IMG/VR virus record: IMGVR_UViG_2600255005_000006
DNA from: a virus
Taxonomy: Duplodnaviria; Heunggongvirae; Uroviricota; Caudoviricetes
Direction: 5' to 3' (one strand)
Length of the DNA stretch: 15,637 bases
The translations under genes and the position numbers were made by a program. This document shows positions 12,886 to 13,722 of the stretch, in pieces (positions within the stretch are counted from its first letter, which is position 1; each line of letters opens with the position of its first letter). Under the pieces are notes generated by a model that saw only the letters and a list, made by a program, of their open reading frames with translations, did no database searches and was not told where the DNA came from.

Positions 12886-12929
12886 CGTGACGCCGGATAT
12901 ATTGGTATTCCCCTCACTGCCCGATAGGG

Positions 12930-13340
12930 TTGGCGGGTGGGCTAAACTTATACCAATACGCGCCGAATCCGCTGGGGTGGATTGACCCGTTAGGACTTAA
13001 ATGCTGGAGTTCGGCCAGACGTGATTACTGGAAAGCAGAAGCTAAAGCAGCGCCAAAAGGCATGTATTCATCCGTGAATATGTTAAGAATGCGTTTTGGT
13101 CTTGCTCCAAGAATTCGAGTTAAAGAATTCCATTTTAAAACAGGTACAGAAAGAATAAGAAACGTATCGCTAGAACTAAACCATCGTCATTGGCCTCAAC
13201 GCGATGGTAAGCATGTTGATATTCCATATAACCTTGAGAAAGTGACGCCCTGGGAACATGCAGCTAAAGATCCCTATAGACATCCAGGTAGTACGTTACT
13301 TGAAATACTACAAGACATTGGAAACTATAAGGGGTTTTAA
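12930..13340 (+). CDS. Orphan Rhs C-terminal toxin tip: Rhs core-end motif ([26 protein letters not shown]) followed by an HNH/colicin-DNase-like domain of about 110 aa; no bona fide start codon
   Basis: Rhs PxxxxDPxGL boundary motif at 12921-12998. Downstream [29 protein letters not shown] resembles the colicin E9 HNH motif [28 protein letters not shown]. In-frame stop at 12888-12890; AT-rich codon usage. Confidence 0.65.
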   Translation: [136 protein letters not shown]

Positions 13341-13341
13341 A

Positions 13342-13722
13342 ATGAGACTGGCTGAATTTATGCAATCTGATATTTATGTTGATTTTCTTAATGACTTGGA
13401 TAAGTCTCTTTCAGAAAAGATAGATAGAAAATCAAAGGTTTATGATGTTGTTGTTAACCTTATGGAAAAATGGTTGGAATATGCCTCGATGTCTTTTGAT
13501 GATTTGCATTGGGTTATATCAAATTGCAGGTCAGATTCAATAAGTTACATTGTAAAAAAACAAGTTACTTATACAGAGGCTAATGGTGGGAAAGATAATA
13601 TCATCAATCAAGCGCCTAAGATAAACTTCCCTATTGGTCATCTGATAGAGTATTATTTATTATCGAAAAGACCGAACGATTTGCTTGATTATGTGAACAA
13701 AAATTCGGATTCCCGGTTCTAA
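13342..13722 (+). CDS. Putative cognate immunity protein, 126 aa
   Basis: ATG 1 nt after the toxin TAA with SD AAGGGG 7 nt upstream; very AT-rich; followed by a terminator. Function inferred from the toxin-immunity gene arrangement; no recognisable family. Confidence 0.55.
   Translation: MRLAEFMQSDIYVDFLNDLDKSLSEKIDRKSKVYDVVVNLMEKWLEYASMSFDDLHWVISNCRSDSISYIVKKQVTYTEANGGKDNIINQAPKINFPIGHLIEYYLLSKRPNDLLDYVNKNSDSRF

Follow-up and report, generated by a model that had tools for sequence, protein, structure and literature searches.

How does the coding sequence of a toxin tip come to stand apart from the gene that should end with it? The question is raised by a DNA stretch of 15,637 nucleotides (nt), listed as IMG/VR virus record IMGVR_UViG_2600255005_000006 and called here, at its full length, the window. 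On its plus strand, an open reading frame (ORF) opens inside the core-end motif of an Rhs protein, continues into a domain related to HNH DNases, and is directly followed by a candidate immunity gene. An earlier note, made from the letters alone, took this pair for an orphan Rhs toxin module, acquired horizontally and perhaps kept as an immunity reservoir or as a silent tip to be re-armed by recombination with a full rhs gene. According to the reading favored here, to which a probability of about three in four is assigned, positions 12920–14119 of the window represent the unique 3′ part of a type VI secretion system (T6SS) Rhs effector locus of Escherichia ruysiae, and their isolation is a stitching artefact.

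Source of the Window and the Intact Locus in the Type Strain

The window originates from the draft genome of E. ruysiae TW11588 (cryptic clade IV; soil, Puerto Rico). The exact product of the immunity ORF as written, 126 amino acids (aa) long, is found in a sole record, AEMF01000001.1 (assembly GCA_000208585.2), which is gap-free and comprises 4.46 Mb; the window itself contains no N letters. Since the strain is E. ruysiae, malX of the window is only 93.7% identical to malX of E. coli.

In the type strain, E. ruysiae OPT1704 (GCA_902498915.1), the counterpart of window positions 12920–14119 is found at L003 9579–10777, with an identity of 99.9% and a single indel in 1200 nt. The type strain carries the tip at the C-terminus of a 1550-aa protein with PAAR, DUF6531, RHS-repeat, and YD-shell domains, and its amino acid sequence does not differ from that of the window tip. 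The genes tssM, tagF, vgrG, and a DcrB-family gene precede this PAAR-Rhs gene; the tip is followed by a gene for a 143-aa protein (P0121), symE, a helix-turn-helix (HTH) gene, a primase gene, a XerC-like integrase gene, and more orphan tips. The same full-length gene is carried by two metagenome assemblies (L009 and L010). The earlier assignment of the ORF to the C-terminal toxin tips of Rhs proteins is therefore well founded, since a complete PAAR-Rhs encoded in a T6SS locus terminates with this very sequence.

The cassette was also found in 4 of 5426 complete E. coli genomes, at 94.7% identity. The copy in E. coli SCU-111 represents a true orphan within a vgrG-rhs array, i.e., a displaced tip that follows a full rhs gene of its own locus, an arrangement that the window does not display. 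In this copy (L001 12422–12854), the toxin ORF is intact, and the immunity gene is interrupted by a nonsense change at codon 31 (TCA to TAA), so that PGAP annotates only two short hypothetical proteins.

Rhs Core End and Toxin ORF

The features of the toxin ORF are as follows.
12920–12998, plus strand: last 79 nt of the rhs core (26 codons from 12921), including the PxxxxDPxGL boundary motif.
12999–13340, plus strand: toxin domain, 113 aa and stop, a relative of the colicin E7/E9-like HNH (beta-beta-alpha-metal) DNases.
13173–13283, plus strand: HNH motif E59-L-N61-H62 ... N78 ... H87 ... D91 ... R94-H95; codons of H62 at 13182–13184, of N78 at 13230–13232, of H87 at 13257–13259, and of D91 at 13269–13271.

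Translation of positions 12921–13340 yields a 26-residue core end and then the 113 aa of the toxin domain with the stop. Residues 1–26 align with the end of TIGR03696 (Rhs_assc_core, positions 50–76 of 76, E 1.6e-6), a match remaining under the cutoff solely because only 26 aa are present, as well as positions 1236–1261 of 1261 in NF041261 (RHS_core). They are identical to the end of the 1550-aa Rhs protein of OPT1704, and the DNA of the core end is 100% identical to that of the OPT1704 rhs gene (L003 9579–9657). The PxxxxDPxGL motif, encoded at 12963–12998, stands right before the variable domain. Hence, the ORF does open inside an Rhs core-end motif, as the earlier note had it.

The same note was correct in stating that the ORF possesses neither a start codon nor an upstream Rhs core. 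Upstream in frame, a stop is met with no ATG or GTG before it, and TTG at 12930 is the sole candidate start; no promoter-like site was found on the plus strand at 12600–13340. To the left of 12920 lies, in antisense orientation, phage gpJ instead of a YD-repeat core. A full-length YD-repeat core precedes the identical tip in OPT1704 (1550 aa) and the homologous tips in Salmonella and Pseudomonas, and its lack in the window is probably an artefact. The possibility of a self-starting truncated toxin was considered and rejected: the internal ATGs at 13062, 13080, and 13089 are devoid of a usable ribosome-binding site.

The G+C content of the toxin and immunity genes (40.4% and 30.6%, respectively; 34.8% for both together) is lower than that of the flanking J fragment (59.7%) and malX (52.4%), and lower than the 62% of the OPT1704 rhs core. 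The AT-richness of the cassette (34.8% G+C vs. 52–60% in the flanks), considered earlier as an indication of horizontal acquisition, is real, but such a composition is a normal property of Rhs tips.

HNH Toxin Domain

In the search with the window protein alone, the best Pfam match was Tox-HNH-HHH (PF15637; E 0.02–0.03, 15 bits at a cutoff of 26). A profile built from 14 homologues trimmed to the tip (A3) matched, among the PDB entries, the ColE7 DNase with E 4.6e-6 over residues 5–89 and pyocin S2 with E 0.05. When its members were submitted to Pfam individually, 11 of the 14 matched Tox-HNH-HHH (best E 1.7e-5) and 8 matched Col-Pyo_DNase (PF21431; best E 9.5e-6). The search of the residues after DPLGL with hidden Markov models, which the earlier note had proposed, thus gave a divided answer: the single sequence stays below the threshold, and the 14-homologue profile yields a significant match to a colicin/pyocin-type HNH DNase.

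The beta-beta-alpha-metal fold characteristic of these enzymes was recovered in the AlphaFold2 model built from 40 homologues (predicted local distance difference test score, pLDDT, 93.6), where the beta-beta-alpha element spans residues 59–90. A previous AlphaFold2 model from 15 sequences was discarded, with a pLDDT below 50 in the HNH region and meaningless Foldseek matches.

Both H62 and H87 are invariant in the 40 homologues; N78, D91, and R94 are conserved in at least 90% of them. The profile alignment places N61-H62 on H544-H545 of ColE7, N78 on N560, and H87 on H569 (ColE7 residues H544, H545, N560, H569, and H573 in the usual numbering). From its spacing (+4 from H569/H87), we infer that D91 takes the position of H573, the third metal-ligand His. 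The position of H544 is occupied by Asn in the subfamily of this toxin and by His in others. Overall, the earlier recognition of a colicin E9-type HNH signature appears to hold, given the ColE7 profile match and the invariance of H62 and H87, with a metal site predicted to be altered to Asn/His/Asp.

Immunity Gene

The immunity gene and its signals are the following.
13342–13776, plus strand: immunity gene, 143 aa after removal of an extra A; as written, it stops at 13722 and encodes 126 aa.
13329–13334, plus strand: Shine–Dalgarno sequence AAGGGG, read from the sequence, 7 nt before the immunity ATG and within the last toxin codons.
13696, plus strand: single-base insertion, GTGAACAAAAA vs. 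GTG-ACAAAAA in OPT1704.

The toxin stop (TAA, 13338–13340) is separated by 1 nt from the immunity ATG at 13342. Over 1200 nt, the window departs from OPT1704 only by the extra A at 13696, which shifts the frame, so that the 143-aa immunity gene reads as a 126-aa one; deleting one A at this position restores a protein identical to P0121 of OPT1704. All eight aligned full-length homologues are 141–143 aa long and share a conserved C-terminal stretch of 24 residues missing from the window ORF. The extra A is probably a sequencing error, and the length of 126 aa given in the earlier note has to be corrected to 143 aa (13342–13776).

No relative of the immunity protein was found in Pfam, NCBIfam, or PDB. 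In particular, there was no match to the Im7/Im9 family (PF01320) or to any other Pfam family at E up to 10 for nine members, and no match of the family to PDB at E up to 10. An exhaustive profile search retrieved 96 clusters of related proteins of ~145–160 aa; none of the 10 remote relatives sampled carried a Pfam domain.

A small immunity gene directly downstream of the tip and conserved together with it was found repeatedly. Members of the family follow homologous toxins at a distance of 0–1 nt in four genera (represented by E. ruysiae, Salmonella, Pseudomonas, and Providencia): in Salmonella and Pseudomonas sp. LM20, they stand behind a full-length PAAR-Rhs and, in Providencia stuartii, behind a stand-alone 114-aa toxin. 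Toxin identities of 89, 88, and 66% are paired with immunity identities of 64, 60, and 46% (Salmonella, Pseudomonas, and Providencia, respectively). The ORF downstream of a Kosakonia toxin with 39% identity is unrelated to the immunity family. Because of its conserved position and its divergence, faster than that of the toxin, which is the usual signature, the downstream gene is considered to be a candidate for the cognate immunity gene, and its product a putative neutralizer of the toxin. The tight coupling of the two genes emphasized in the earlier note is substantiated by the 1-nt gap, the AAGGGG sequence, and the position kept behind homologous toxins in the four genera.

The stand-alone Providencia toxin (P. 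stuartii L022/L023 6001–6778) starts with its own ATG (MEGECW...) and carries no Rhs core end; its 143-aa immunity homologue (46% identity) begins 1 nt after it. This pair is listed in 57 assembly-collection blocks, with no rhs gene called upstream.

Junctions of the 1.2-kb Piece and the Assembly

Two junctions delimit the piece shared with OPT1704.
12919/12920, no strand assigned: junction of phage gpJ (antisense, ~codon 55) with the rhs core end, showing no clear microhomology.
14119/14120, no strand assigned: junction of symE with malX (~codon 25); the identity with OPT1704 extends no further than 14119.

Matches from 674 E. coli genomes end at 12916–12922. When the OPT1704 core end was used as the query, the orphan tips of seven loci all resembled the core from position q477 on; q480 is the first position of contigs L006 and L007, which belong to other assemblies, the window piece starts at q479, and Rhs paralogues diverge from ~q465 onward. 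This coincidence at q477–q480 implies that the left end is a point where assemblers break contigs. At the right end, the 39 nt that come next in OPT1704 do not vary among the six other symE copies compared, two of which reside within one genome; hence, the breakpoint here coincides with the opening base of a multi-copy repeat. On both sides, accordingly, the 1.2-kb piece ends within 1–2 nt of a repeat boundary.

The neighboring pieces are out of biological order as well. In the window, the J fragment abuts a truncated Mu-F head gene, although J (1159 aa) comes after the tail genes M, L, K, and I in E. coli Yu5, as well as in each of the 10 genomes that encode the identical tape-measure protein. 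Altogether, three gene-truncating junctions occur within 3.1 kb. The ORFs specific to these junctions (J′ of 624 aa, SymE′ of 108 aa, and the immunity ORF of 126 aa) are on record only in the TW11588 assembly, and the junctions were not found in complete E. coli genomes. Of the seven differences between the 11 kb of prophage and Yu5, six are 1-nt indels, three of them an extra A. The minor head gene and an rsxC-like ORF are each split in this record, and the extra A at 13696 fits the same error pattern.

The gap-free state of the 4.46-Mb record, along with its 454-type pattern of indel errors, leads us to infer that AEMF01000001.1 is a pseudomolecule of contigs abutted without gaps. Viewed as a true genome feature, the arrangement is confronted with breakpoints at repeat boundaries and with indel errors in the record; the tip most likely owes its isolation to the assembly. 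The orphan status proposed in the earlier note is not upheld in view of the ends at repeat boundaries, the disordered neighboring pieces, and the 454-type indel errors, and the ideas of an immunity reservoir or re-arming lose their support with it.

Weighing of the Alternative Explanations

Several observations weigh against the favored reading or parts of it. The artefact reading presupposes an rhs core ending at q478 elsewhere in the TW11588 record. On its malX side, the right junction does not touch a known repeat, and the contig end there needs another cause, e.g., a coverage gap. True orphan copies of the tip exist in four E. coli genomes, making orphan status biologically possible. As for the toxin, the window protein alone does not match PF21431 and falls below the Pfam thresholds, and neither toxin model has a Foldseek match in PDB. 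Moreover, two of the three ColE7 metal ligands seem, from the alignment, to be replaced (His to Asn and His to Asp), leaving the metal preference, and even the activity, unproven.

The deposited sequence, taken at face value, describes real junctions, i.e., a 1.2-kb rhs remnant (tip, immunity gene, and most of symE) that illegitimate recombination or extensive deletions left between a scrambled prophage and malX. Lacking a promoter and a start codon, and with its immunity gene frameshifted, such a remnant would be an inert, decaying relic. The record size poses no objection, since E. ruysiae chromosomes of ~4.4 Mb exist, and there are true orphan copies with a decayed immunity gene in SCU-111 and three other E. 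coli genomes. Still, this explanation is considered unlikely: two independent breakpoints would each have to land within 1–2 nt of a repeat boundary, no repeat is left at either junction, unlike the outcome of homologous recombination, and the J fragment would remain misplaced. The core end is 100% identical to that of the main rhs gene of OPT1704, whereas orphan tips elsewhere reach 73–85%; the frequency of indel errors in the record and the restriction of the junction ORFs to the TW11588 assembly argue in the same direction. The same requirement of real junctions burdens the view of the pair as a functional orphan module, either an immunity reservoir or a silent toxin to be re-armed by recombination with a full rhs gene. 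Orphan Rhs modules have reportedly been documented (Poole et al. 2011), re-arming is said to have been demonstrated in Salmonella (Koskiniemi et al. 2014), and the window does offer an intact toxin ORF and 79 nt of core-end homology. These 79 nt are, on the other hand, all the homology available; the module lies outside the rhs locus, and recombination with a distant rhs would delete or invert the intervening DNA. Together with the missing promoter-like site and an immunity ORF that, as written, has lost the conserved C-terminal 24 residues, this renders the functional module highly improbable.

In a further scenario for the isolated tip, an aberrant action of the XerC-like recombinase encoded in the neighboring symE-HTH-primase-XerC module could have joined the conserved GAYCCGATAGGG site to a pseudo-site in phage J. 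Such modules do flank the tip in OPT1704 and SCU-111, and the left breakpoint falls within 2 nt of the base where every orphan tip behind the XerC module begins. This coincidence is more simply accounted for by an assembly break, as contigs L006 and L007 end there too; the J side bears no resemblance to the site, and the right junction and the misplaced J piece would stay unexplained. The chances of this scenario are regarded as slight in the extreme.

Proposed Operation of the Effector and Origin of the Isolated Piece

If the stitching-artefact reading is correct, the 1.2-kb piece would be a unique contig between a collapsed rhs-core repeat and a collapsed symE/HTH repeat, and the 126-aa immunity ORF would be the product of a 1-nt homopolymer-type read error. 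The living cell would carry the tip at the end of a PAAR-Rhs protein of ~1550 aa, as in OPT1704. The Rhs shell is expected to encase the toxin and to be loaded on VgrG with the aid of a DcrB/DUF1795-type chaperone; the T6SS would then fire the effector into neighboring bacteria, where the released toxin would degrade DNA. This delivery route is suggested by the gene context in OPT1704 and by analogy with published work on other Rhs effectors. In the putative active site, His62 would serve as the general base, and the metal would be held by Asn61, His87, and Asp91. Binding of the immunity protein to the toxin would protect sister cells, and translational coupling (stop, 1 nt, ATG, with the ribosome-binding site inside the toxin gene) would ensure that immunity is made whenever the toxin is.

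A Recombinase-Bearing Module in Related Loci

In related loci, the Rhs tip and immunity gene belong to a repeated module that further comprises symE, an HTH gene, a primase gene, a XerC-like integrase gene, and a spacer of ~950 bp.
Module loci: SCU-111 L001 964–18808; OPT1704 L003 5347–16628; L004–L008.
Spacer copies: L003 15666–16628; L001 11084–11997 and 17851–18808; L006 6087–7032.

The modules are arranged in tandem in SCU-111 and OPT1704; the window holds only the tip, the immunity gene, and part of symE. Every orphan tip behind the spacer starts at the same GAYCCGATAGGG, whatever toxin comes next. The spacer has a G+C content of 67% and is 92–96% identical between distinct copies; its substitutions lack a period of three (40/36/39), and it is non-coding. 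It is rich in local hairpins, with a fold z-score of about −2.4 on both strands. No Rfam family matched the spacer, and RNAalifold retrieved 2 compensatory pairs of 299. A structured RNA in the spacer was consequently rejected: there is no Rfam match and almost no covariation, and the z-score is alike on both strands.

Rhs-associated integrases were noted in bee-gut bacteria (Steele et al. 2017), and no description of the Escherichia module was found in the literature searched. Tentatively, this mobile module, with the cassette as its cargo end, might integrate site-specifically at GAYCCGATAGGG in the rhs core end, arming the Rhs protein with a new tip and pushing the old one downstream as an orphan, although the odds are clearly against it. 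If true, such integration would supply the missing mechanism for the C-terminal displacement of Rhs proteins.

Neighboring Genes

The surroundings of the toxin–immunity pair include the following features.
13782–13811, no strand assigned: bidirectional terminator, a G+C-rich hairpin with T runs on each strand, kept in all related loci.
13819–14145, minus strand: symE-like ORF of the type I toxin family (Pfam SymE_toxin, PF08845, E 1e-21).
13949–14077, plus strand: isrA-family small RNA (Rfam RF01385, 115 bits vs. a gathering score of 51, E 1.6e-26).

The terminator separates the immunity gene from the convergent symE-like gene. The latter shows a clear SymE_toxin domain but lacks its own 5′ end beyond 14119, where the true symE sequence ends; the first 26 nt of the ORF, including the ATG (14120–14145, minus strand), are antisense malX. 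The start and the first ~8 residues (MPQNDSNA) are therefore supplied by antisense malX, and the 108-aa protein called here is a chimera made by the junction. The isrA match covers the full length of the model, a family of Hfq-binding small RNAs, and runs antisense to the symE-like ORF; this RNA may represent the antisense partner of the SymE-type toxin gene. From 14120, malX follows without its first ~24 codons (in comparison with E. coli and Escherichia sp. E1V33).

To the left of 12920, the minus strand encodes a fragment of the lambda-type tail tip protein J (NF049904, lambda TipJ, 67–683 of 1163), starting, according to DNA homology, near codon 55 of J; beyond it lie prophage head and tail genes. 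The head-to-tail block at 15–11035 is 99.9% identical to the prophage beside trkG/ynaK in E. coli Yu5, and the gpJ fragment (11030–12919) is 95% identical to Yu5. The Mu-F-like minor head gene of the prophage is broken by an extra A at 10738 and reads as two ORFs, of 93 and 268 aa. The likeness to E. coli prophages begins only at base 15 of the window, where the tail L-like ORF (1–579, minus strand) encodes 192 aa vs. 232, and one more junction may lie at the window's left edge. Downstream of the window (TW11588 L002 18254–20345), an rsxC-like gene is annotated as separate ORFs of 258 and 421 aa, likely another frameshift in the draft record.

Significance and Comparison with Known Systems

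What looks like an orphan in a draft pseudomolecule can be a product of the assembly, and counts of orphan toxin and immunity genes drawn from records of this kind are unreliable. The pair adds to a very large known class one more Rhs nuclease tip and an immunity family without a curated model. It is convenient for asking how a protein unrelated to Im7/Im9 neutralizes the same DNase fold, and its related loci point to a recombinase-bearing module that may explain the swapping of Rhs tips.

Judging by homology, the toxin and its putative immunity protein would represent an ordinary Rhs C-terminal pair of the colicin-like HNH DNase superfamily; less ordinary are the uncurated, Im7/Im9-unrelated immunity protein and the two substituted metal ligands. 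The homology to the DNases of colicins E7/E9 and pyocins S2/AP41 (PF21431; PDB 7cei, 5ew5, and 4qko) spans ~85 residues and takes in the HNH beta-beta-alpha element along with the helical region preceding the motif, with conservation of the general-base His, the Asn, and the second His. The identity is, however, ~22–31%, Asn and Asp stand at the positions of ColE7 H544 and H573, and, by analogy with other Rhs effectors, the toxin is presumably delivered as an Rhs tip, unlike the colicins. The polymorphic-toxin clade Tox-HNH-HHH (PF15637) gives the best Pfam match, yet the window sequence remains below its threshold. Unlike Im7/Im9, a family of ~85-aa four-helix proteins, the immunity protein counts 143 aa and is unrelated to them.

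PAAR-Rhs nuclease effectors, e.g., RhsA/RhsB of Dickeya dadantii and the SPI-6 Rhs of Salmonella, have reportedly been described by Koskiniemi et al. 2013 and Zhang et al. 2012. These T6SS effectors share with the present system the PxxxxDPxGL boundary, the AT-rich variable tip, and the immunity gene directly downstream, and the order of vgrG, a DcrB/DUF1795 chaperone gene, and PAAR-Rhs recurs in OPT1704, Salmonella, and Pseudomonas. In contrast to them, the toxin subfamily considered here has no curated model, the window sequence falls below the Pfam thresholds, and the DNase activity is a predicted one.

Arrays displaying a similar logic are said to occur in Bacteroidales as recombinase-associated orphan immunity arrays (rAID; Ross et al. 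2019). In the related Escherichia loci, as in rAID arrays (see PMC12247911) and integrons, a XerC-like recombinase gene is situated within arrays of displaced tips and immunity genes with a constant boundary sequence. The Escherichia module differs by the addition of primase, HTH, and symE genes and of the 950-bp GC-rich spacer, and its recombination is so far a presumed one. Finally, the orphan Rhs/CdiA C-terminal modules (Poole et al. 2011; Jackson et al. 2009, PMC2935791) resemble the tip of the window in their short core homology and lack of a start codon; the window piece, however, has no rhs gene upstream of it and was probably isolated by the assembly.

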